DNA of 64,000 nucleotides from an uncultured Sulfuricella sp. (GTDB taxonomy: Bacteria > Pseudomonadota > Gammaproteobacteria > Burkholderiales > Sulfuricellaceae), in the NCBI GenBank assembly GCA_964527565.1, contig CAZGOY010000001.1, positions 66,495-130,494 of the forward strand, read 5' to 3'. The notes under the pieces are model-generated. The model saw only the letters and a program-made list of their open reading frames with translations. It did not search any database and had not been told where the DNA came from. The position numbers and the translations under genes are program-made. Each line of letters starts with the position of its first letter. The first letter of the stretch is position 1. Shown piece after piece: positions 2,583 through 64,000 of this stretch.

Positions 2583-3278
2583 ATGGACCAGCCCGCCCCG
2601 CATGCCCAGGTCTGGGATCTGCCGCTACGGCTGTTTCACTGGTCGCTGGCGGCGCTGGTGGTCGGCGCCTTCGTCACCGCCAAGCTGGGCGGCGGCGCGA
2701 TGGTCTGGCATGGCCGCCTCGGGCTGGCGATCATCGGCCTCCTGGCGTTTCGCCTGGCCTGGGGCGTCGTGGGCTCCACCTACGCGCGCTTTGGCCAGTT
2801 CGTGCGCGGCCCCGCCGCCATCCGCGCCTATCTGCGCGGCGAATGGCAGGGGCTGGGGCACAATCCGCTGGGCGCGCTCTCCGTGCTGGCACTGCTGGGC
2901 GCGTTGACCTTGCAGGCCGCCAGCGGGCTGTTCTCCAATGACGACATCGCCTTTTCCGGCTACCTGGCGCCGCTGGTCGACAGCCACCTCAGCAGCGACC
3001 TGACCGGCATCCACCACTGGCTGGAAAAAATCCTCATGGCGCTGGTGGCGTTGCACGTGGGCGCCATTCTCTTCTACGCCCGCGTGAAGAAGCAGAATCT
3101 GGTGCGCCCCATGCTCACCGGCTGGACGGAGGGGAATCCCGCGCAATCCGCCAAGGGCGGCGGCGTTGCGGCCCTGGCGATGGCCGTGCTGTTTGCGCTG
3201 ACAATGGCCTGGGTTGCTTCAGGGGCGCTACTGCCGCCGCAGCTTCCCCCGCCGCCTTCCGCGGCACCGGATTGGTAA
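2583..3278 (+). CDS. Cytochrome b561 / Ni-Fe-hydrogenase b-type cytochrome-like membrane protein
   Basis: 'WDLPLRLFHWSLAALVVGAFVT' N-terminus and four hydrophobic helices with conserved His (HW, HHW, LHVG). ATG at 2583 is preferred over TTG at 2574. Confidence 0.7.
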   Translation: MDQPAPHAQVWDLPLRLFHWSLAALVVGAFVTAKLGGGAMVWHGRLGLAIIGLLAFRLAWGVVGSTYARFGQFVRGPAAIRAYLRGEWQGLGHNPLGALSVLALLGALTLQAASGLFSNDDIAFSGYLAPLVDSHLSSDLTGIHHWLEKILMALVALHVGAILFYARVKKQNLVRPMLTGWTEGNPAQSAKGGGVAALAMAVLFALTMAWVASGALLPPQLPPPPSAAPDW

Positions 3279-3470
3279 CGTTTCGGCTTCCCTGAAAAGG
3301 TCCGCCCCAAGACCAAACGGCTCCGCCAAGGTGCGGGTTCGGCGTTTTCTTTGGGTTGGGTAACTTCAGGCATTCTGGCCGCCCAGGCGCGCTTTGCCGG
3401 AGGGGCGTGTCATGCGCTGCCGGTTCAGCTATTTCCTTGTCGCTCAACGCCTTCGCTTCATCTTGCTCGG

Positions 3471-3498
3471 TTGACTTCCCCTTCCGCAACCTTACAAT
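3471..3498 (+). promoter_or_regulatory. Candidate sigma70-type promoter facing the 684-aa orphan gene
   Basis: TTGACT (3471-3476), 16-nt spacer, TACAAT (3493-3498). It lies about 210 nt upstream of the GTG at 3710. The predicted leader contains a 9-bp stem, tttatccgc (3544-3552) / gcggataaa (3594-3602). Confidence 0.35.
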
Positions 3499-3709
3499 CC
3501 CCATAGTCAACCGTCTGCCTCCCACAAGTGAGGTTCAACGAGGTTTATCCGCTGCCAATAAGTTTGACGGTTCTTGCAGGATTGGGCGGGGCGGCGGATA
3601 AACGCTATTCGTTGGGGTGCTAATGGCCCTGGGCCTGAATGGAAATTGAAGTGAGATGCGTACGACCTAAAGCCATAGTTCGACTCGTTGGCAAGCGGAG
3701 GGGGAAATA

Positions 3710-5764
3710 GTGAGTTCACAACAACGACAAATCGACAAAGACACTCGTCTTGTCCAGCAGACGCTTACGCTGACGAGCCTTGCAATATTGAAAGTAGACA
3801 TCGACGAGCGGCATCGAAATTACATCGACTACCTTGCGCAATTCGTCTTGAGCGTACTTGCTACACACAAGCCAGAACTGGTTACAGACACCAAAGTAGC
3901 TGAACTGCTCGAAGAAGACTTCGGACTGGTGGTGCCAACCAAGGGAGTTCAGCATGTACTACGAAGGCTAGCGAAAGACGGGCATGTTCGAAAGGAACAC
4001 GAAGTCTTCTATCCGGCAGCGAATCTGCCCGACGTCGGTATCGCGCCAAAGCGTGCAGAGGCAGCATCTCGGATACAACGCGTTTACGATGCCTTGTGTC
4101 GATTTCACTCCACAGTTCAATCAGAAGCAACTTGGTCAGATGCCGATGCGAGCAAAGCAATATTGGGGTTTCTTGGCAGATTCGCAGTGGACTGTCTCAA
4201 GAGCTATGTATTTAAAACCGCATTACCTCGGATACCAGATACAGGATCAAAGGAATTCTATGTTGTCGGTCGCTTTTTGCAGCATTGTCACGAATCAGAG
4301 CCCGGCCTTTTCGAGGATTTCATAGTCTTAGTCAAAGGCCAGATGTATGCTAATGCGCTTACTTGTCCCGACCTTGAGTCACTTGAAAAGAAGTTCGACA
4401 ACGTCACTTTCTATCTCGACACGCCCTTGGTTCTAAATTTGCTTGGACTGCAAGGAGCGGGGCTGTACCAAGCTAGCGAAGAACTCATCACTCTCGTCCG
4501 CGACCTGAAGGGGAGCGTAGGAGTGTTCTCGCACACGCTTGAAGAAACAAAAGGTGTGCTTCGTTTCGCTGCAAGGAATTTCGATAACCCTCAAGCAACA
4601 TCACGAATTCTGCGCGAAATGCGCAACAACGGAATAACGCTATCCGACTTGCTCATCTATATCGATCAACTGGCTGAGAGGCTCTCGTCATTCCATATCC
4701 GGGTGAAGACAACTCCTGAATATGTGAGTGATTTTCAAATTGACGAGACCACTTTCCAAGGCGTGCTAGTTGACGAAGTCCGCTATCAAGGCGACCACGC
4801 GATAAGAAACGACATTAATTCGGTTCGTAGCATCTACGTTCTCCGGCGAGGTGTTTCTCCGGCCAGACTCGAAGACTCCATAGCAGTTTTTGTAACGCCC
4901 AATCCAGCCTTGGCTAGAGTCGCCTTTGAGTTTGGAAAGACGCACAACTCATCCAAGGAGGTATCGAGTGTAATCACCGATTACAGCCTCGCAAACGTCG
5001 CTTGGCTTAAGGCACCGATGAAGCGCCCGACGCTACCCGAAAAGGAGACGATGGCGATCTGCTATGCCGCGCTAGAACCGAGTAAGGAGCTATTCCGAAA
5101 GTACGTTGAAATGATGGATCAGTTACGGAGTGCGGGGAACATCTCCGAACAGGAGCATGCAATTCTTCGTCTTTCGCCAATAGCGCAGCGCGAACTTATG
5201 GACTTTACATTAGGCGACGAAGGGGCTCTTACAGGCACAGGCCTCAGGGAGATTCTCACCCGAGTAAAGGAAAGTCTAATTGAGGAGCAAAAAACGATTG
5301 CTGCTGCTGATCGTGCGGTCGTTGAAGATCAATTGGCAAGCATCCAACTTACATTGGCAGAGCAGGAAAAGGCACATCATGACGCCATTATCAAAGAGCG
5401 AGATATTGGGCGTATGTTCAACGATGAAAAGGAGATGCTCCGCAACGACCAACATAGTGTCATCCTCACCGCATCTCATAGAGCAAGACTTGTTTCAAGG
5501 GCATTGACAATCTCGCTTATGGCTATTTTTAGTATGTTGCTCCTAGTGGGCGCTTTTGCCGGTGCCGGACTCATATCCGTCGGAACATCGACTATGCCAC
5601 TGGCAAAGGTCGCGCTTCCGGTTATCGTTGGTATTGCTGTGATTTGGGGGTGGTATAGCTGGCTAACCGGAAAGACCGTGCATGGAATTACGCAGCAACT
5701 TGAGTACGCTATCACGTTGCGAGTTTTCACTTGGCTTACCGGAAAACCAAGTTTGCCGGAATGA
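3710..5764 (+). CDS. Hypothetical 684-aa protein: winged-helix-like N-terminus, possible PIN-like core, coiled coil, two C-terminal transmembrane helices
   Basis: Long ORF in an AT-richer stretch. GTG start is preceded by GGAGGGGG 7-8 nt upstream. Motif 'VTFYLDTPLVLNLLGL' at aa 232-247, heptad-like charged segment at aa 520-580, hydrophobic helices at aa 597-622 and 629-652. I recognise no family. Confidence 0.7.
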   Translation: MSSQQRQIDKDTRLVQQTLTLTSLAILKVDIDERHRNYIDYLAQFVLSVLATHKPELVTDTKVAELLEEDFGLVVPTKGVQHVLRRLAKDGHVRKEHEVFYPAANLPDVGIAPKRAEAASRIQRVYDALCRFHSTVQSEATWSDADASKAILGFLGRFAVDCLKSYVFKTALPRIPDTGSKEFYVVGRFLQHCHESEPGLFEDFIVLVKGQMYANALTCPDLESLEKKFDNVTFYLDTPLVLNLLGLQGAGLYQASEELITLVRDLKGSVGVFSHTLEETKGVLRFAARNFDNPQATSRILREMRNNGITLSDLLIYIDQLAERLSSFHIRVKTTPEYVSDFQIDETTFQGVLVDEVRYQGDHAIRNDINSVRSIYVLRRGVSPARLEDSIAVFVTPNPALARVAFEFGKTHNSSKEVSSVITDYSLANVAWLKAPMKRPTLPEKETMAICYAALEPSKELFRKYVEMMDQLRSAGNISEQEHAILRLSPIAQRELMDFTLGDEGALTGTGLREILTRVKESLIEEQKTIAAADRAVVEDQLASIQLTLAEQEKAHHDAIIKERDIGRMFNDEKEMLRNDQHSVILTASHRARLVSRALTISLMAIFSMLLLVGAFAGAGLISVGTSTMPLAKVALPVIVGIAVIWGWYSWLTGKTVHGITQQLEYAITLRVFTWLTGKPSLPE

Positions 5765-5778
5765 GCCCGGGCAAATCT

Positions 5779-6703
5779 AATGGGGTCAGACTCTGAGGTC
5801 TCCCCACATAATGGGGTTGCTCATCAATAAGATAAAGCATATTGTTCATTAAAAACTGCACATGCATGGCAGGTTTATTGTCTTCTCTGTAGCGACCAAA
5901 CCACAAAGGAGAAACCGCCATGCATGCACTGACCATGTTACACCGCATTTTTTCCAGCCGTTGCCCCGCGATGCACGCAAAGCGCTTGACGTCGTTGCTT
6001 GCGGCGGTTGAAGCTGCGATCTCCGGGTTCAAACTGACCTTGAGCGATTTGGGTCGAGGATTGCGCGGCAAGGTTGCCGTTAAACACAACATCAAGCGCA
6101 TGGATCGCCTGCTCGGGAACACTCTGTTGCATGCCGAGATGCATGCTTTGTATGGGGCGCTCGCTGGTGAGTACTTGGCCGGAGTGAGCACCCCGCTGAT
6201 CGTGGTTGACTGGTCTGACCTGACCACGGTGCTCTCGCCACAGCCTCAAGAATGCGCGTACCCAGCGCGACCCTTGGCTTTTGGCGGTCTCGCCCGGATT
6301 GGCTCATTTAAGCGCCCAGGCCGTCACCGCCATTTACGCCCAACGGATGCAAATCGAGGAAAGTTTCCGCGATCTCAAGAGCGAACGCTTCGGTCTGGGA
6401 TTCTCCGCCAATCGCTCCACACAAAAGATGCGATTAGCGGTTCTGTTGCTCGTTGCCAACTTGGCCTCATTTGCCTTGCGACTGATTGGCGAAATCGCGC
6501 GCGAACGACAAATGGAATTTCAATTCCAAAGCAATACGAGACGTTCACGTCATGTTCTTTCCGTCATCTCCTTGGGGCGGCAACTCGTTCAGCTTGAACT
6601 CGCCGCTTTTCCACTTCGCGAATTCGAGGCTACGCTTCAGCGACTTCGATGCAACCATGCAGCTCTGGAGATTTGAGGGGAGACCTCAGAGTCTGACCCC
6701 ATT
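5779..6703 (+). mobile_element. Internally deleted IS4-family insertion sequence (about 0.9 kb between perfect terminal inverted repeats)
   Basis: GGGGTCAGACTCTGAGGTCTCCCC at 5782-5805 and its exact reverse complement at 6677-6700. The repeat extends to 27 bp, with AAT/ATT, over 5779-5805 and 6677-6703. It encloses transposase fragments. I could see no target-site duplication. Confidence 0.8.
5920..6676 (+). pseudogene. IS4-family DDE transposase, disrupted (N- and C-terminal parts in different frames, central catalytic region missing)
   Basis: N-terminal part 'MHALTMLHRIFSS...STPLIVVDWSDLT' (5920 to about 6230). C-terminal part 'AIYAQRMQIEESFRDLKSERFGL...' (about 6300-6676) carries the YREK-type motif. 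Their combined length is far below a normal IS4 transposase. Confidence 0.75.
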
Positions 6704-6761
6704 GGTTGCCATTGGTTGAGAGCGAAATTTTCTGGCCAAGGGAAGGGGGCGTTCCCCTGCC

Positions 6762-7913
6762 CTATTTGAAATACAGCCGGAGGCTATCCCAGGCGCGCTT
6801 GGCGATGTTGGCGACGGCCACGTTCTCCAGCGCCACCAGGGGAAATTCCGCATAGGGTTTGCCGTCCAGCGTCAGTCTGATGACGCCGACCCGTTGCCCT
6901 GCAGGCAAGGGAGCGAGCAGCGGCTGCTGGCTGACCATTACTGCCTTGAGGAAAGGATACTGGCCTTTCGGCAGGGATAGGTACAAATCCTCTGCAACAC
7001 CGGTATTCAGGGTGCTTTCATTCCCTTTCCACACCGGCAGCGTGGCGATCGCCCGGCCTTTTTCATACAGGCGGTGGGTGTCGAAAAACTGGAAGCCATA
7101 ATTGAGCAGTTTCTGGCTTTCAAGCGCGCGTGCGCTTTCCGACGAGGTTCCCAGCACTATCGAGATCAGCCGCCGTTGGTCGCGTTGGCCGGAAGCAATC
7201 AGGCAATAACCGGCGCTCTCGGTATGTCCGGTTTTCACCCCGTCCACGGTCGGGTCGGACCACAGCAGGCGGTTGCGGTTCGCCTGGTTGATGTTGTTGT
7301 ATTTGTATTCCTTGATGGCGTAGTACGAGTAAAACTCGGGAAAGTCGCGTATCACCGCCTGCGCCAGCAGGCCAAGATCGAAGGCGGTGGTGTAATGCTG
7401 CGCATGCGGCAGGCCGGTGACGTTCATGAAATGGGTATTCTTCATGCCCAGTTTCAGCGCCTGTTCGTTCATGCGCTCGACGAAGGCTTCCTCGCTACCG
7501 GCGATCCCTTCTGCCAGGGTGATGCAGGCATCGTTGCCGGATTGCACGATCATGCCGTGGATCAGCTGTTCCACGTTTACCGGTACATTCATCTGGATGA
7601 ACATGCGCGATCCCTCGGCGCGCCAGGCGCGCTCGGAAACCGGCAGTGTCTGGTTGAGGCTGATTTGCTTGCGGCGCAGGGCGTCGAAGGTCAGGTAGGC
7701 GGTCATCAGCTTGGTTAGTGAGGCGGGCTCCACGCGCTCATCAGCCTTGTGCTGCGCCAGGGTCTGGCCGCTATGATGGTCCAGCAGCAGGAAGGCGCGC
7801 GCAGCGACAGCGGGAACAGGAGGAGCTTGCGGGACGGGCGTGGCGGCGATGGCCTGGGCACCCACGAGAAACGACAGCAAAAACGGCAGGAACAATGAAT
7901 TCATAGGCGTCAT
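6762..7913 (-). CDS. dacC: D-alanyl-D-alanine carboxypeptidase (PBP5/6 family)
   Basis: Signal peptide, then the SxxK 'SLTKLMT', SxN 'QSGND' and KTG 'VKTGHT' motifs. Confidence 0.9.
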   Translation of the reverse strand: MTPMNSLFLPFLLSFLVGAQAIAATPVPQAPPVPAVAARAFLLLDHHSGQTLAQHKADERVEPASLTKLMTAYLTFDALRRKQISLNQTLPVSERAWRAEGSRMFIQMNVPVNVEQLIHGMIVQSGNDACITLAEGIAGSEEAFVERMNEQALKLGMKNTHFMNVTGLPHAQHYTTAFDLGLLAQAVIRDFPEFYSYYAIKEYKYNNINQANRNRLLWSDPTVDGVKTGHTESAGYCLIASGQRDQRRLISIVLGTSSESARALESQKLLNYGFQFFDTHRLYEKGRAIATLPVWKGNESTLNTGVAEDLYLSLPKGQYPFLKAVMVSQQPLLAPLPAGQRVGVIRLTLDGKPYAEFPLVALENVAVANIAKRAWDSLRLYFK

Positions 7914-10607: not shown

Positions 10608-11174
10608 TTATACGAGTGCATTGATCGATTTGTGCGGAATGAAAACCCCGCAGCCCAGCTTGCGGTTGCCGCCCAGTCCCAGTTGCTGGACGCGGATGGC
10701 GTGTTCGACCGGCAGGCCGTGTAGCATCAGGCTGAAACCGGCCACCGCGCCATCCTCGGTGGTGAGGGTTTGCTGGCGGCCGCAAATGAAGCGGGTATCT
10801 ATGCCCAATTCATCGAGCAGGCGCATGATGTCGCGGGCAAAATCGCCTTCGTCGGCGCTGCCGGTGGTCACCAGTTGGGCATATAGCGGGGTGTGATGCG
10901 TCAGCGCCTTGACCTTGCCGGCACCGATAAGCAGCGCGTTGCCGACTACGCTGATGGTCTGGCCGTCCAGGGCCAGCGTGTCGTCCAGGCGTTCTTGCGG
11001 GATGCGGATCACCAGCTTGGCACGCCGGTTGAGGAGCAGCGTGCCATCGCCGCAGTCGGAGCCGTGCAGCGGGTGAATAGCGGCCAGGTTTTCCTGCGCC
11101 AGCCAGGGCAGCAGGCGCGCCAGTTCATCGAACAGGGCAAGGCCGTGATCCTTGGGGACGCGTGTGCCGCTCAA
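10608..11174 (-). CDS. Cas6/Cmx6-like RAMP-superfamily protein (orphan; no CRISPR array or other cas genes in the window)
   Basis: C-terminal glycine-rich loop 'QQLGLGGNRKLGCGVFIPHK', plus 'VPKDHGLALFDELARLLPWL' and 'IHPLHG' resembling the orphan type I-MYXAN Cas6/Cmx6 family as I remember it. The listed start is a TTG. The frame stays open 23 codons further upstream (to 11243) with no ATG/GTG/TTG. Confidence 0.5.
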   Translation of the reverse strand: MSGTRVPKDHGLALFDELARLLPWLAQENLAAIHPLHGSDCGDGTLLLNRRAKLVIRIPQERLDDTLALDGQTISVVGNALLIGAGKVKALTHHTPLYAQLVTTGSADEGDFARDIMRLLDELGIDTRFICGRQQTLTTEDGAVAGFSLMLHGLPVEHAIRVQQLGLGGNRKLGCGVFIPHKSINALV

Positions 11175-60386: not shown

Positions 60387-60498
60387 ATCAGCGTGCAAAA
60401 CTGACCAGGAATCCGGGGTGATCAGCGTCCAAATTTGACCACCCCGGTTTGTGCCATCATCCGGCCCTTTTTGGCTGGAGCAACCTGGAGTGATTTGC

Positions 60499-60711
60499 AT
60501 GGAAACCATCGGCAAGATACGCCGCCGTCACAAGGTCAAAGGCGAGAGCATCAGCGCGATGGCCTTCGATCAGCCGCGACTGCGGACGGTCAAGGCGATC
60601 CTCGCCAAGGGGCTGGATAGCCAAGCCGAGCTACAGACGTTCGACGCGCTGGCCGAGACTTATACCCAAGGCGGCCGCTTTTGCCGTGACACGTCACTTT
60701 TATTGAATTGA
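60499..60711 (+). pseudogene. istA: IstA transposase remnant (N-terminal HTH start fused to extreme C-terminus)
   Basis: 'METIGKIRRRHKVKGESISAMA' looks like an IS21 IstA N-terminus, but the ORF is only 70 aa before istB. Confidence 0.5.
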
Positions 60712-60719
60712 GGCACACC

Positions 60720-61508
60720 ATGAATCCTATTCCCGAACTCTCCCCGCTGCTCAAGCAACTGCGCCTGTCCGGCATTCTCGATTCACTGGAGGCGCGCAAC
60801 CGCCAAGCGGTCGACAGCCACCTGGCCTACACGGAATTCCTGTCGCTGTTGATCCAGGACGAGGTGGCGCGCCGCGAGCAGACCAAGCTTCAATCCCGGT
60901 TGCGCCGCGCCAGCTTCCGCTCGCAGAAGACGCTGGATGGCTTTGACTTCGACCGTTTGCCCCAACTCAACCGGAGCTTGGTGCATGATCTGGCGACCGG
61001 GCGTTACATCGAAGAGAAGGTGGCGGTGCTGATCGCCGGCCCGTGCGGCACCGGCAAGAGCCATCTGGCACAGGCGCTGGGGCACGGCGCGGTGCGGCAA
61101 GGCTATGACGTGCTGTTCTCGACGCAAACCCAGTTGCTCGGTAGCCTGCACGGCGCGCGGGCGACCGGCAGTTATGAGCGGCGCTTCCAGCAGTTGGCGC
61201 GGGTGGGTCTGCTGATCATCGACGACTTCGGGCTGAAGCCGCTACGCCCGCCCCAGGACGAGGACTTCCATGATCTGATCGCGGAACGCTACGAGCGGAC
61301 GGCGACAATCCTGACCAGCAACCTCGACTTCGGCGAGTGGGGCGATGCCTTCGCCGCCAACAAAATGCTCGGCGCGGCTACGCTGGATAGGTTGCGTCAT
61401 GCGGCCTACCGGGTCGTTCTGGACGGCGACAGTTTCCGCGCACCGAGACCCATGCCGGACAACTCAAAACCATCACTTGCGAAAGGAGGAAAAAATACGC
61501 ATTCTTGA
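60720..61508 (+). CDS. istB: IS21-family helper ATPase IstB
   Basis: Walker A 'GPCGTGKSHLA', Walker B 'LLIIDDFG', 'TSNLDFGEW'. Confidence 0.9.
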   Translation: MNPIPELSPLLKQLRLSGILDSLEARNRQAVDSHLAYTEFLSLLIQDEVARREQTKLQSRLRRASFRSQKTLDGFDFDRLPQLNRSLVHDLATGRYIEEKVAVLIAGPCGTGKSHLAQALGHGAVRQGYDVLFSTQTQLLGSLHGARATGSYERRFQQLARVGLLIIDDFGLKPLRPPQDEDFHDLIAERYERTATILTSNLDFGEWGDAFAANKMLGAATLDRLRHAAYRVVLDGDSFRAPRPMPDNSKPSLAKGGKNTHS

Positions 61509-61586
61509 CCCCGTTCGAGACCCCGTTTCGGGTGCTTCCAGGTGGCGCCATTAGGCCGATCTTGGGTGGCGCCATTGGGGTGATCC

Positions 61587-61925
61587 GTGACAGCGCCCAA
61601 ATCGCTTGTGAAAATCAAAGACCGCATCAAGCAACAGACGGATCGACGGCTAACTCCGGTACCGCTGAGCGACGTGATGAGGAATATGAATGCCAGCCTT
61701 CGCGGCTGGGTCGGCTACTTCCACTACAGAAACTCCAGCAAGGTGCTCGACAAGGTGAAAACGTATGCGGAAAACCGCCTGCGAACGCACCTGATGAAGC
61801 GTCATAAGATCAGGGATCGGAACACGGCATTAGAGCGATTCCCACGTCAGAAACTTTATGCAGACTACGGGCTATACAAAGTTCCGGTAACGGCGGGCTG
61901 GAAGACAGCGCATGCCTCGGTGTGA
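61587..61925 (+). pseudogene. Group II intron reverse transcriptase/maturase, C-terminal maturase (X/GIIM) fragment only
   Basis: 'KDRIKQQTDRR...MRNMNASLRGWVGYFHYRNS...' is the maturase-specific domain. The RT domain is missing; it was cut at the IS21-like right end. Confidence 0.7.
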
Positions 61926-61937
61926 AGAACATCGGAA

Positions 61938-62013
61938 AGCCGTGTGCGTTAGTAGCGCATGCACGGTTTGATGAGGGAGGGCAGGCGAGAGCCTGTTCTC
62001 TACTCTACCCTAT
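61938..62013 (+). ncRNA. Group II intron ribozyme domains V and VI (3' end of a truncated intron)
   Basis: aAGCCGTGTGCG-TTAGTAG-CGCATGCACGGTTt (61938-61970) fits the 34-nt domain V consensus (AGC triad, 2-nt bulge). It is followed by the GAGGGCAGG/CCTGTTCTC stem with an unpaired A. The 3' boundary is approximate. Confidence 0.65.
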
Positions 62014-62072
62014 TTACTGCTGTGAAAATCAGACTCCCTTTGTTGTTTTCGCAAAACTAGCGGGCGGGTTTT

Positions 62073-62082
62073 TGTGTAAAAT
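62073..62082 (+). promoter_or_regulatory. Extended -10 promoter element (TGTGTAAAAT) of the first DUF1640-like gene
   Basis: TGnTAAAAT lies 28 nt upstream of ATG 62110. An identical 10-mer precedes the paralogue. Confidence 0.4.
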
Positions 62083-62109
62083 GAAGCAACTGTCGATGGA
62101 GTATGAATC

Positions 62110-62406
62110 ATGAGCGCAATTACTTTCGATACTCTCAAATTCGTAGAACGGTTGGAGAAGGCCGGGATGTCGCGCGAGTATGCCGCCGCGCTGGCGGAAG
62201 CGCAGAAGGATTCACTCTCCGAAGTGATGGATGCGCAGTTGGCCACCAAGGGTGACCTGTCCAAAATGGAAAGCACGCTGCAAAAAGAAATCCAGCGACT
62301 GGATTACGAAATTCGGTTGGTCAGGTGGATGGTCGGTCTGTCGCTGGCACTCTCCACTGGCATCTTGGCCTTGCTGGCGAAGCTGGCTTTTACCCTGCCG
62401 CACTGA
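62110..62406 (+). CDS. DUF1640-like coiled-coil protein with C-terminal membrane anchor (copy 1)
   Basis: 98 aa; 'MSAITFDTLKFVERLEKAGMSRE'; C-terminal hydrophobic 'WMVGLSLALSTGILALLAKLAF'. Confidence 0.7.
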   Translation: MSAITFDTLKFVERLEKAGMSREYAAALAEAQKDSLSEVMDAQLATKGDLSKMESTLQKEIQRLDYEIRLVRWMVGLSLALSTGILALLAKLAFTLPH

Positions 62407-62504
62407 ACGGGGTCAAAATAAACAAACTAAAGGACACCCACTTTGTTTAACGTAAGGTCCATTGTACGAATTGGGTGAAATGGTGAGAATATCTGAGCGA
62501 ATTT

Positions 62505-62514
62505 TGTGTAAAAT
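62505..62514 (+). promoter_or_regulatory. Extended -10 promoter element (TGTGTAAAAT) of the second DUF1640-like gene
   Basis: Same 10-mer and same spacing to ATG 62541 as copy 1. Confidence 0.4.
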
Positions 62515-62540
62515 GAAACGACTTACGGGGGGCATGAATC

Positions 62541-62825
62541 ATGAGCACAATTACTTTCGACACATTGAAATTCGTTGAGCGCTTGGAAAAGGCGGGTGCT
62601 TCGCGTGAGTTGGCTTCCGCATTGGTGGAAGTCCAGAAGGAAACGCTGTCGGAAATTATGGATTCCACGCTGGCGACCAAGAGCGACATTCGATCTGTGC
62701 GTGATGATCTGGTAAAAATGGATCGACGCATGGATGGCTTGGATGCCAAGTTCGATAAACTGTCGTGGATGATGGGTATTATTATTGCCTTGGCTGTCGC
62801 CAACTTCGCTAAGCAGTTTTTCTAA
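62541..62825 (+). CDS. DUF1640-like coiled-coil protein with C-terminal membrane anchor (copy 2)
   Basis: 94 aa; 37 of the first 50 residues are identical to copy 1 (counted by eye); C-terminal 'WMMGIIIALAVANFA'. Confidence 0.7.
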   Translation: MSTITFDTLKFVERLEKAGASRELASALVEVQKETLSEIMDSTLATKSDIRSVRDDLVKMDRRMDGLDAKFDKLSWMMGIIIALAVANFAKQFF

Positions 62826-62912
62826 ACTAGGCGGCAGGCCCAGCCCAATAAAGGGGTCAGACCCCTATTCGGCTCTATTGACGGCTAAGTGGCAACTGAC
62901 AAGGGGAGCGAG

Positions 62913-63293
62913 ATGGGCCTTACCTATGCGAGACTGAGATTAACCAATCTTTTCAATCGTCAGCAAGTGCAGGTCACCGCGCTTGTCGATACGGGGGCGA
63001 CTTTCATGTGCGTGACCGAGGAGATTGCCGTGCAACTGGGTTTTGATATTGACGAGGTCAGCCAGCAAACCGTTACCTTGGCGGATGGGCATCAGCGCAA
63101 AGTCCCGAAGATTGCGCCGATAGAGATTGCGTTCGAAAATCGCAGTTATGTGACCGAGGCGGTGGTGTTGGGAAATGAACCTTTGCTTGGCGTCATTCCT
63201 CTGGAGGCAATGGATCTTGTGGTTGATCCTCGCCAGCAGACGTTGACCGTGAATCCGCAACATCCCAATTATCCGGTAGCACTGGCTAAATAA
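62913..63293 (+). CDS. Retropepsin-like (clan AA) aspartic protease
   Basis: 126 aa from ATG 62913 (AAGGGGAG upstream); catalytic 'ALVDTGATFMCV'; 'LLGVIPLEAMDLVVDP'. Confidence 0.7.
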   Translation: MGLTYARLRLTNLFNRQQVQVTALVDTGATFMCVTEEIAVQLGFDIDEVSQQTVTLADGHQRKVPKIAPIEIAFENRSYVTEAVVLGNEPLLGVIPLEAMDLVVDPRQQTLTVNPQHPNYPVALAK

Positions 63294-63295
63294 TC

Positions 63296-64000
63296 GTGCC
63301 TCGCCGTCTCCGGATCGACCTGCCCGGCAATCCACAGCACATTATCCAACGCGGGGTGGATCGGCAGCCGGTATTTTTTTCCGATGACGATTGCAGCCTT
63401 TATCTGGACTGGTTAGGAGTCTATTCGAAAAAGCGCGGCATCTCGCTTCATGCCTACTGCCTGATGACCAACCATGTCCACTTGGTGCTGACGGCTCCAT
63501 CGGCGGCGGAGTTGGGTTGTTTGATGCAGGATATGGGGCGTCGCTATGTCCAGTATGTGAACCGTACTTACCAGCGTAGCGGCGGGTTGTGGCAGGGGCG
63601 CTATAAGTCCAGTTACATTCAGACGGAACGCTATTTGCTGGCATGTCAGCGCTATGTCGAACTTAACCCGGTGCGGGCTGAAATGGTGAAGGCCCCGGGC
63701 GAGTGCCGCTGGAGTAGCTACCGCGCCAATGCACTGGGTGTGGACAATCCCCTGATTACGCCTCACCACGAATACCTGAGCCTCGGCACATCGCCGGAAA
63801 ACCGTCTGCAAGCCTATCGTGAACTGTTTGCGGCGCAGGTGGATGACCCGGATTTGGCTCTTATCCGTGCCGCTACCCAGCAGGGTGTTGTGGTAAGTGA
63901 CGGATGTTTTGCCGAAGCTATCGAAAAACGCTTGGGACAAGTTGTGCAACCCAGACTGAGAGGGCGGCCAAAAAAACAGGATCAAACAAAGGGAGAATAA
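63296..64000 (+). CDS. REP-associated tyrosine transposase (RAYT; IS200-like Y1 family)
   Basis: 234 aa; 'HIIQRGVDRQPVFF', HUH 'NHVHLVL', catalytic-Tyr helix 'RYVELNPVRAEMV'. GTG start lies 2 nt after the protease stop. TAA is at the window end. Confidence 0.85.
   Translation: MPRRLRIDLPGNPQHIIQRGVDRQPVFFSDDDCSLYLDWLGVYSKKRGISLHAYCLMTNHVHLVLTAPSAAELGCLMQDMGRRYVQYVNRTYQRSGGLWQGRYKSSYIQTERYLLACQRYVELNPVRAEMVKAPGECRWSSYRANALGVDNPLITPHHEYLSLGTSPENRLQAYRELFAAQVDDPDLALIRAATQQGVVVSDGCFAEAIEKRLGQVVQPRLRGRPKKQDQTKGE

Follow-up and report, generated by a model that had tools for sequence, protein, structure and literature searches.

In the 64,000-nucleotide (nt) stretch from an uncultured Sulfuricella sp. 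that we analysed (hereafter the window; forward-strand positions 66,495 to 130,494 of contig CAZGOY010000001.1 in assembly GCA_964527565.1), a low-GC islet carries, as its sole long open reading frame (ORF), a gene for a 684-residue protein. On balance, we regard this gene as a member of a large and unnamed family of inner-membrane-tethered PIN-like nucleases, and as a self-contained, horizontally mobile module for conflict or defence. Foremost, this reading draws on a modelled PIN-like core with a small set of invariant polar residues, on a C-terminal membrane hairpin retained throughout the family, and on the genomic surroundings of the relatives. The coordinates of all features are collected in Table 1.

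The gene begins with a GTG start codon behind a good Shine-Dalgarno sequence, and both are kept in close relatives. Its 5′ neighbour is a cytochrome b561 gene (Ni_hydr_CYTB match), and downstream lies an insertion sequence (IS) remnant with 30-nt inverted repeats and a DDE_Tnp_1 fragment. The GC content is 0.66-0.70 in the upstream flank and falls to 0.48-0.52 over about 3500-6000, and the lowest-GC 2-kb stretch of the entire window is the one starting at 4001. The gene itself has a GC content of 0.493 and a GC content at third codon positions (GC3) of 0.50, as against a GC3 of 0.71-0.86 in pepP, cytochrome b, dacC, plsC, and dsrA, the flanking genes that could be phased reliably. Given this low GC3, the lowest-GC 2 kb of the window, and close relatives that sit in unrelated contexts with DNA homology limited to the coding sequence, we conclude that the gene was acquired horizontally and recently. 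A first-pass annotation, made from the sequence alone, had already described an AT-richer block than its flanks, placed between a cytochrome b gene and a decayed IS, with one long, horizontally acquired gene having a GTG start and a good Shine-Dalgarno sequence, and this description holds in each of its parts.

The AlphaFold2 (AF2) model of the whole chain, built with a 52-sequence alignment, has a mean predicted local distance difference test value (pLDDT) of 83 and a predicted template modelling score (pTM) of 0.69. Together with hydropathy, the model bears out the three-part architecture of a soluble body plus a membrane anchor that had been proposed at first. Here, the N-terminal helical module contains a helix-turn-helix followed by a β-hairpin, and so the winged helix suspected at this end is indeed present in the model. 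Fold matches of this part were F93 and RosR (probability 0.95), and members of the family gave sub-threshold matches to Pfam winged-helix models. Past the α/β core, there is a helical extension in which P443 is invariant and Y452, L472, L486, T500, and G502 are near-invariant. The charged coiled-coil segment and the two hydrophobic helices predicted to follow it are also found, the first as a stalk of about 90 residues within one single helix that continues into the first transmembrane (TM) segment, and the others at the nucleotides where they had been placed. The second hydrophobic helix spans residues 630-653 in the AF2 model. The stalk helix is present throughout the family with a poorly conserved sequence. 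Two C-terminal hydrophobic helices occur in 68 of the 77 full-length relatives and one, at the threshold used, in 8; the sequence of this TM region is poorly conserved, yet hydrophobic helices are retained family-wide. An Arg-rich segment before the first TM helix and the short loop between the two helices suggest a hairpin with an N-in/C-in topology.

To characterise the core, we also modelled residues 223-505 separately and compared both models with known folds. In the whole-chain search, the matches with a probability of about 1 were all PIN proteins, namely PAE0151, PAE2754, 7vwo_A (a chain of a M. tuberculosis toxin-antitoxin complex), AF1683, and HARP RNase P, with a target TM-score of about 0.6. 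The search with residues 223-505 was headed by PAE2754, Rickettsia VapC2, PAE0151, HARP, and 7vwo_A, with the Rrp44 PIN domain and Exo1 as weaker matches, and the core matches overall had probabilities of 0.99-1.0 and target TM-scores of 0.55-0.63. Moreover, among viral models, the best match was a phage 'PIN like domain' protein (E=2.1e-3, probability 1.0). The AF2 models show the order of elements of the three-layer α/β/α PIN fold (β1-α-α-β2-α...β3...α-β4-α-β5-α). By E-value, the whole-chain search was led by O-methyltransferases, which we rejected; their TM-scores were 0.08-0.20 with a root-mean-square deviation (rmsd) of 17-20 Å, they were gone in the domain-only search, and they are explained by a generic winged helix plus Rossmann-like layout.

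Conservation gives independent support: across 80 sequences that include plasmid relatives at about 23-27% identity, just six polar residues of the core never vary, namely D237, E279, D368, R379, N398, and K434 (80/80). D237 stands at the end of β1 in a Y-x-D-T motif (FYLD237T), E279 in the helix after β2, D368 at the N-terminus of the helix preceding β4, and N398 just past β4 in a V-T-x-N motif. All four are at canonical PIN catalytic positions, and the family thus has the three to four conserved acidic or metal-site residues expected of a PIN domain; PIN groups with three to four conserved acidic residues have been listed (Matelska et al. 2017, PMC5499597). The PIN-like nuclease that was earlier no more than a weak guess from the acidic FYLD strand has therefore gained in substance, as the AlphaFold and Foldseek check that had been called for returned a PIN-like fold and TM helices were predicted as well. 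Judging from the models and the conserved residues, the core probably adopts a PIN-like fold with a functional metal site.

Contrary to its first description as an orphan, the protein has a great many relatives. A word-indexed protein search with the window protein gave 676 matches, including the identical protein in other assemblies, and an exhaustive HMMER search found at least 3,241 representatives of 50%-identity clusters, 1,128 of them with E<=1e-30. Homologues at 40-79% identity come from Rhodocyclaceae, Desulfuromonadaceae, Geomonas, Syntrophobacter, Lysobacteraceae, and a Halobacteriota metagenome-assembled genome (MAG), the last being the one archaeal relative, and those from the word-indexed search are all labelled 'hypothetical' and have no Pfam domain. 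In a pattern-based scan of 185,579 species genomes (one genome per species), we counted 113 relatives (about 0.06%, a lower bound), and these are scattered over more than 15 phyla, including Pseudomonadota, Desulfobacterota, Planctomycetota, Chloroflexota, Acidobacteriota, Nitrospirota, Bdellovibrionota, Verrucomicrobiota, Gemmatimonadota, Spirochaetota, Armatimonadota, and others. Distant relatives (about 22-27% identity) are carried by 12 plasmid records, six of them from Enterococcus faecium and the others from Klebsiella, Pantoea, Sporosarcina, Arthrobacter, Hymenobacter, and Listeria. No relative was found in 50,697 phage records. The gene appears split or interrupted in two genomes, as two adjacent ORFs in one (L048 9995-11965) and as two fragments about 1 kb apart with a minus-strand ORF between them in the other (L070 5628-8592), which suggests that members of the family are occasionally inactivated.

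Such a distribution bears directly on whether the protein might be a housekeeping membrane-bound ribonuclease, acting in RNA turnover in the manner of RNase Y and lying by chance in a low-GC patch. The anchor, coiled coil, and nuclease head of RNase Y are loosely reminiscent of the family, and some relatives do have housekeeping neighbours. Nonetheless, a family present in so few species genomes and over so many phyla, found on plasmids and in RM (restriction-modification) operons, and with every close relative in a different context, fits this role badly, as do a codon composition atypical for the host and a near-identical haplotype that differs at the very site. We consider a housekeeping role to be effectively excluded by the distribution, and the likelihood that we would give it is very small.

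For the genomic surroundings, the flanking ORFs of 80 loci were clustered all-against-all and the neighbours identified with Pfam. This revealed one recurrent neighbourhood, in which the family gene (X) lies together with HsdM (N6_Mtase + HsdM_N), HsdS (Methylase_S), and HsdR (HSDR_N, SWI2_SNF2, T1RH-like_C) of a type I RM system, in the order hsdM-hsdS-X-hsdR on one strand. The arrangement occurs in 30 of the 77 full-length copies. A neighbour-joining tree of these 77 proteins divides into two clades, one of 18 members that includes the window protein and a sister clade of 59, which holds all 30 RM-linked copies interspersed with solo ones. Of 29 operons, 23 have no more than 20 nt between hsdS and X, and in 14 of the 23 the stop and start codons overlap by 1 or 4 nt. 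On the other side, X and hsdR are closely spaced in 6 of 21 operons and separated by 0.2-6.4 kb of extra DNA in the rest, where the longer gaps hold typical defence cargo, namely Fic, RhuM, GmrSD_N, DUF1828/1829, DUF6978, ThsB-TIR, a reverse transcriptase, and a PIN gene, along with IS elements. That PIN-like genes can be coupled to type I RM has been remarked on in a general way, without a description of this family (Matelska et al., PMC5499597). As a separate observation on these operons, a Schlafen AlbA_2 + HATPase_c_4 protein of about 540 residues is encoded in six X-bearing type I RM loci (L026, L041, L045, L046, L059, and L065; e.g., L059 6865-8475), usually between hsdM and hsdS, and is thus a further common passenger there.

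With its place directly after hsdS and the stop/start overlap seen in most RM-linked operons, X might alternatively be an accessory subunit of type I RM, i.e., a tether or regulator that holds HsdM2S or HsdR2M2S at the membrane for DNA entry or restriction alleviation, with the solo copies being derived or serving an unlinked RM system. A membrane anchor and a long stalk would suit a tether, and the intermixing of RM-linked and solo copies in the 59-member clade would suit such a history. EcoKI is reported to be membrane-associated, although a literature search for this localisation gave nothing usable. On the other hand, the 18-member clade with the window copy and the plasmid relatives have no linked hsd genes, most type I RM systems do without this gene, and the interval between X and hsdR is a general cargo hotspot. 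The solo clade also keeps the invariant putative catalytic residues, which argues for an autonomous enzymatic function. Taken together, we find a subunit role distinctly unlikely, and retain the reading of a self-contained nuclease module.

Outside the RM operons, the family occurs in other settings. The neighbours of the solo copies are a mixture of housekeeping genes with genes of defence or mobile elements, among them CapP/M78 peptidase, DUF4411, TIR, type II/III methyltransferases, DUF1156, a GajB-like UvrD, and IS200; the CapP-like neighbour is traceable in one locus only. In the solo clade, the clustering of flanking ORFs gave no recurrent neighbouring ORF of at least 70 residues and no common partner. 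Every close relative is in a different context, and nucleotide homology among them is limited to the coding sequence and a short leader patch. One, from Rhodocyclaceae (L083 1239-9347), is directly downstream of a compact defence cluster that comprises a 1025-residue PLD + SNF2 helicase, a 1386-residue type ISP-like methyltransferase/restriction protein, and a DUF3800 gene. Another adjoins a pair of a small ORF and an HTH_3 gene along with IS200, and a third lies between an ABC transporter and a sulfatase-maturing enzyme. The plasmid copies are flanked by IS elements and recombinases, and some adjoin replication genes. In the Sporosarcina plasmid pSporoP37 (L092 10169-14784), a single recombinase gene separates the relative from a cluster of genes annotated as nucleotidyltransferase, ThiF-family adenylyltransferase, MPN-family protein, and SAVED-domain protein, which we read as resembling a cyclic-oligonucleotide-based antiphage signalling system (CBASS). 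For many copies, then, the variable contexts with defence genes or mobile elements that the first-pass annotation anticipated are what we found.

Several observations weigh against the interpretation of the window gene as a PIN-like nuclease with a defence role. With regard to the fold, no match reached E<=1e-3, the best being 1.2e-2 in the protein data bank (PDB) and 2.1e-3 in the viral library; the Foldseek PIN matches have E-values of only 1e-2 to 2e-3 and an rmsd of 5-6 Å. Since no E-value reaches 1e-3, it is the agreement among the searches, and no single strong score, that carries the PIN assignment. The fourth putative catalytic position is occupied by Asn and not by Asp. No significant sequence or profile match to the PIN superfamily was obtained: the window protein has no PIN match in Pfam at E<=1, PIN_3 is sub-threshold in 1 of 52 family members (E=0.011), and in an E. 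faecium plasmid relative the PIN_3 match (E=5.7e-4) scores 21.1 bits, below the cut-off of 27; as both matches fall on the segment of the modelled core, we count them as sub-threshold support for it. Searches of PDB sequences with the single sequence, a full-length profile, and a core-only profile likewise gave no PIN match, and hhalign of the core alignment with two single VapC/PIN sequences gave a probability of 0.2, which is uninformative with single-sequence templates and which we do not hold against a PIN fold. Matches to RNF8, anoctamin, and histone H4 in the PDB-sequence searches were set aside as coiled-coil or low-complexity noise, and sub-threshold DUF2207_C and DUF2280 matches as an effect of coiled-coil/TM composition.

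With regard to defence, there is no significant match for the window protein in Pfam, NCBIfam, PHROGs, or PADLOC, none of which has a model for the family, and our literature searches brought up no paper describing it. The first-pass annotation had advised a scan with defence models, and among the 5,027 defence-protein models of PADLOC-DB v2.0.0 (2023), the window protein has 0 matches at E<=1, leaving a defence role to rest on genomic association; three RM-embedded and three plasmid relatives gave only noise in PADLOC (E>=0.003). In addition, none of the 18 members of its own clade is RM-linked, and many solo copies have housekeeping neighbours, and so the defence inference is second-hand for the window copy. 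The suggested link with defence is thus upheld insofar as relatives occur in type I RM operons, beside defence genes, and on plasmids amid IS elements, and the window site itself is variable, but not in the sense of RM linkage, which belongs to the sister clade alone. On these associations, we hold a defence role for the window copy to be credible.

The Asn at the fourth PIN position, together with a two-TM hairpin conserved family-wide, could also be taken to mean that the membrane part is the weapon. Here, the protein would be a membrane-disrupting abortive-infection effector whose TM helices oligomerise and depolarise the membrane, with the PIN-like core as a nucleic-acid-binding sensor. 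Many single-gene abortive-infection or CBASS-type effectors kill via small TM modules. However, few parts of the protein are as poorly conserved in sequence as the TM region, as expected of an anchor, no SLATT or other effector-TM model in Pfam matches the window protein or 52 relatives, and a set of three acidic residues, an Asn, R379, and K434 that never vary resembles a catalytic site. We therefore see a pore-type effector as quite improbable, and for the membrane helices as the effector, as had been first surmised, there is nothing that speaks for this rather than for an anchor.

Returning to the tethered PIN-like nuclease, we envisage the following mechanism. The C-terminal two-helix hairpin would serve as an anchor in the cytoplasmic membrane and leave both ends of the protein in the cytoplasm, and the stalk helix of about 90 residues would carry a cytoplasmic head, in which the N-terminal helical/winged-helix module is packed on the PIN-like core. 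Within the core, D237, E279, D368, and N398 would make up a metal-binding site. This head is presumably inactive until an infection-related signal arrives. In the RM-embedded clade, sensing would likely proceed via the co-translated type I methyltransferase, resembling PrrC held latent by EcoprrI, and in the solo clade, including the window copy, the N-terminal module may itself be the sensor. The PIN site might then cut RNA or else nucleic acid arriving at the membrane, and phage or plasmid propagation would be halted. We infer that the protein is a nuclease, and likewise its substrate, trigger, oligomeric state, and role in defence, with RNA as the most likely substrate by analogy with VapC-type PINs; similarly, latency until a trigger comes from the N-terminal module or the RM complex, and an outcome of protection or abortive infection, are what we would expect. 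It is possible, though we hold this only tentatively, that the family makes up a second class of RM guardian unrelated to PrrC, i.e., a membrane PIN nuclease co-translated with HsdS, docked on the type I methyltransferase at the inner membrane, and firing when RM is disabled or DNA enters, while the window and plasmid branch would be an autonomous single-gene immune sensor-effector.

Among known systems, the first to be compared is PrrC, a soluble protein that combines an ATPase-like (ABC) N-domain with a HEPN-type nuclease. In the EcoprrI locus, prrC lies between the specificity and restriction genes, which is the slot of X in the sister clade. As a nuclease held latent within a type I RM locus, PrrC serves as a guardian of RM and senses its inhibition (PMC12707154). 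The likeness is thus one of position, as the sister-clade genes come after hsdS, to which they are tightly coupled, and before hsdR; this applies to 30 of the 59 sister-clade members, but not to the window copy with its cytochrome b561 and IS neighbours. In contrast, the family differs from PrrC by its winged-helix/helical N-module, PIN-like core, long stalk, and membrane hairpin, and homology to PrrC/RloC was not found, there being no Pfam, NCBIfam, or PADLOC match and a fold that is PIN-like and not HEPN. Other accessory genes of type I RM (GmrSD/TgvAB-like, Fic, RhuM, Abi-type) share the hsdS-hsdR niche and are unrelated in sequence, and unlike this variable cargo, X is fixed directly after hsdS.

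The best structural matches to the core are VapC/PIN toxins and HARP RNase P, which have the same order and placement of conserved residues. Compared with VapC toxins, the family protein is about 5 times larger, has about 70 extra residues inserted in the core, and is membrane-anchored; its fourth position holds Asn in place of Asp, and its sequence similarity is below every curated threshold. An adjacent antitoxin, as in VapBC, is not found, with no recurrent neighbouring ORF of at least 70 residues in the solo clade. Just one catalogued PIN-like group has predicted TM helices, namely the PIN-TRAM proteins of PIN.COG4956/YacL type (Matelska et al. 2017, PMC5499597). These have four N-terminal TM helices plus TRAM and match Pfam PIN, whereas the family has a C-terminal two-TM hairpin, a winged helix, no TRAM, and no Pfam match. 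As for SLATT and two-TM pore effectors, the window protein and 52 relatives show no SLATT match, and only a weak and non-specific one to DUF2207_C. We conclude that the protein is known in kind, as an accessory nuclease linked to RM or defence islands, and that, as far as the literature and the Pfam, NCBIfam, PHROGs, and PADLOC models show, the family, its domain combination, and the fixed post-hsdS position appear to be undescribed.

Upstream of the gene, the first-pass annotation had reported a strong-looking promoter and a 9-bp stem in the leader. Both sequences are present, the stem with longer arms of 14 nt. The promoter match is not above chance, as 1 was found in 3200-6800 and 2.2 were expected from shuffles. 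In a relative from an unrelated context (L085), whose protein is 79% identical to the window protein (77% by BLASTP), both promoter boxes (-35 and -10) and the TACAATCCCCATA-TCAACCGTC after them are kept, as are both arms of the stem, while the loop has diverged. Promoter boxes and leader stem are absent from the close relatives L087, L088, and L089, and the stem is common to just 1 of 5 close relatives. We dismissed a structured RNA leader or riboswitch as a conserved element, as no Rfam family matches the leader, its folding is no better than that of shuffles (z = -1.06), and the stem recurs so rarely. What close copies do share at this end is the Shine-Dalgarno sequence with the GTG start, and we accordingly take the promoter to be plausible and the stem in the leader to be unproven.

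An inverted repeat 3′ of a promoter could, in combination with a winged helix, also be an autoregulatory operator, and this belongs to yet another interpretation, in which the gene is a selfish addiction module: a fused toxin-antitoxin, made of a PIN toxin and a winged-helix antitoxin or autorepressor in cis, that stabilises its carrier DNA and does not protect against phage. PIN is the classic VapC toxin fold, the family is found on plasmids between IS elements and beside replication genes, and there is no partner gene. The clustering of toxin-antitoxin and RM genes has in fact been discussed (Matelska et al., PMC5499597). Still, the inverted repeat is conserved in no more than one relative, the conserved membrane hairpin and long stalk are left unexplained, and the tight translational coupling to hsdS points to a functional RM link and not to hitch-hiking. 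We judge addiction as the main role to be unlikely, and it is not mutually exclusive with defence.

On the downstream side, the IS has kept perfect 30-nt terminal inverted repeats (5779-5808 and 6674-6703) despite its internal deletion, and the core of this repeat has 2 exact copies in the window with 0 expected. A contig of another assembly (L093), which encodes an identical D-Ala-D-Ala carboxypeptidase, follows the window at 99.97% identity from 13913 back to 6566, a position within the IS remnant, and diverges beyond it, so that of the IS just the final 138 bp or so are shared. Past the breakpoint (L093 7153-8400), other cargo takes the place of the 684-residue gene and cytochrome b561, which, going by the encoded proteins, may be a toxin-antitoxin pair of BrnT/BrnA type with a UDG-family gene behind it. 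Contigs from the sample with an identical gene copy break at the same place inside the IS. Because the haplotype diverges and metagenome contigs break there, the IS is a polymorphic, strain-variable accessory hotspot. When we looked for the empty site, the exact cytochrome b561 protein was not on record elsewhere, and the carboxypeptidase led to the alternative haplotype and not to a clean empty site. As the far flank differs too, no clean insertion can be called; a simple insertion at the site is unproven, with IS-associated rearrangement or assembly branching equally possible. A 16-nt direct repeat around the low-GC block of gene and IS may be an islet boundary or integration footprint, or may be due to chance, for which we estimate an expectation of about 0.1-0.3 such pairs in 4.3 kb.

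Table 1. Coordinates of the 684-residue gene, its predicted protein segments, and the flanking elements within the window
Feature	Position	Strand	Basis or remark
16-nt direct repeat CCCAGGCGCGCTTTGC, left copy	3382..3397	.	Coincides with onset of GC drop; possible islet boundary
Sigma-70-like promoter candidate, TTGACT-16-TACAAT	3471..3498	+	10/12 match; single match in 3200-6800
Inverted repeat/stem-loop in 5′ leader; 14-nt arms 3543-3556 / 3590-3603, 33-nt loop	3543..3603	+	Arms 93% complementary
Shine-Dalgarno GGAGG	3697..3701	+	8 nt 5′ of GTG; GGAGGGA-ATT-GTG kept in close relatives
Coding sequence, 684-residue protein (stop codon included)	3710..5764	+	ORF call; full-length alignment with homologues at 56-79% identity; identical copy in independent assemblies
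N-terminal helical module, residues 10-225	3737..4384	+	AF2 secondary structure
Winged helix-turn-helix, residues 60-102	3887-4015	+	AF2: helices 60-71, 77-89; strands 93-96, 99-102
PIN-like core, α/β, residues 230-436	4397..5017	+	Separate domain model, pLDDT 84
Conserved helical extension after core, residues 442-505	5033..5224	+	AF2 helices 442-454, 459-474, 480-488, 490-500
Charged stalk helix/coiled coil, residues 509-596, continuous with TM1	5234..5497	+	AF2 single helix 509-618, pLDDT 85-95
Transmembrane hairpin, TM1 residues 598-616 and TM2 residues 629-647	5501..5650	+	Kyte-Doolittle, 19-residue windows: 2.33, 1.92
C-terminal helix after TM2, residues 657-677	5678..5740	+	AF2; near-invariant G654 precedes
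Internally deleted IS, DDE_Tnp_1 type, 925 bp	5779..6703	.	Starts 15 nt past stop codon; transposase fragment DDE_Tnp_1 E=3.4e-5
16-nt direct repeat, right copy	6788..6803	.	15/16 versus left copy; inside 3′ end of D-Ala-D-Ala carboxypeptidase gene

Elsewhere in the window, two further observations were made. A 188-residue gene (10608-11174, minus strand) is flanked by dsrC/TusE and a DUF6967 gene in the neighbourhood of dsrAB, and in the identical contig L093 it matches Pfam Cas6 (PF09559); this is a lone Cas6-like gene in a sulfur-oxidation cluster, and no CRISPR array or other cas genes were noticed nearby, although no dedicated search was made. Moreover, a second low-GC patch (60400-64000; GC 0.52) contains apparent pieces of mobile elements, for which the translations suggest an IstB-like ATPase (60708-61508), a fragment of a group II intron maturase (61587-61925), two paralogous proteins of about 95 residues (62110-62406 and 62541-62825), a retropepsin-like ORF (62889-63293), and a Y1/REP-type transposase-like ORF reaching the window end.

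If the nuclease and defence reading of the 684-residue protein is true, thousands of 'hypothetical' proteins in most major phyla would become a defined class of immune nucleases, and this class would extend to clinical plasmids of Enterococcus and Klebsiella. No catalogued defence system combines a winged helix, a PIN core, a long stalk, and a membrane hairpin, and for annotation purposes the family deserves a profile model of its own. Were the guardian reading also true, it would be a widespread defence system, in more than 15 phyla, that is absent from current catalogues. The fixed post-hsdS position in many type I RM operons offers a testable handle on RM backup beyond the single well-studied case of PrrC. 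The family also provides a way to ask whether membrane-sited defence, at the place where foreign DNA enters, is a general strategy.

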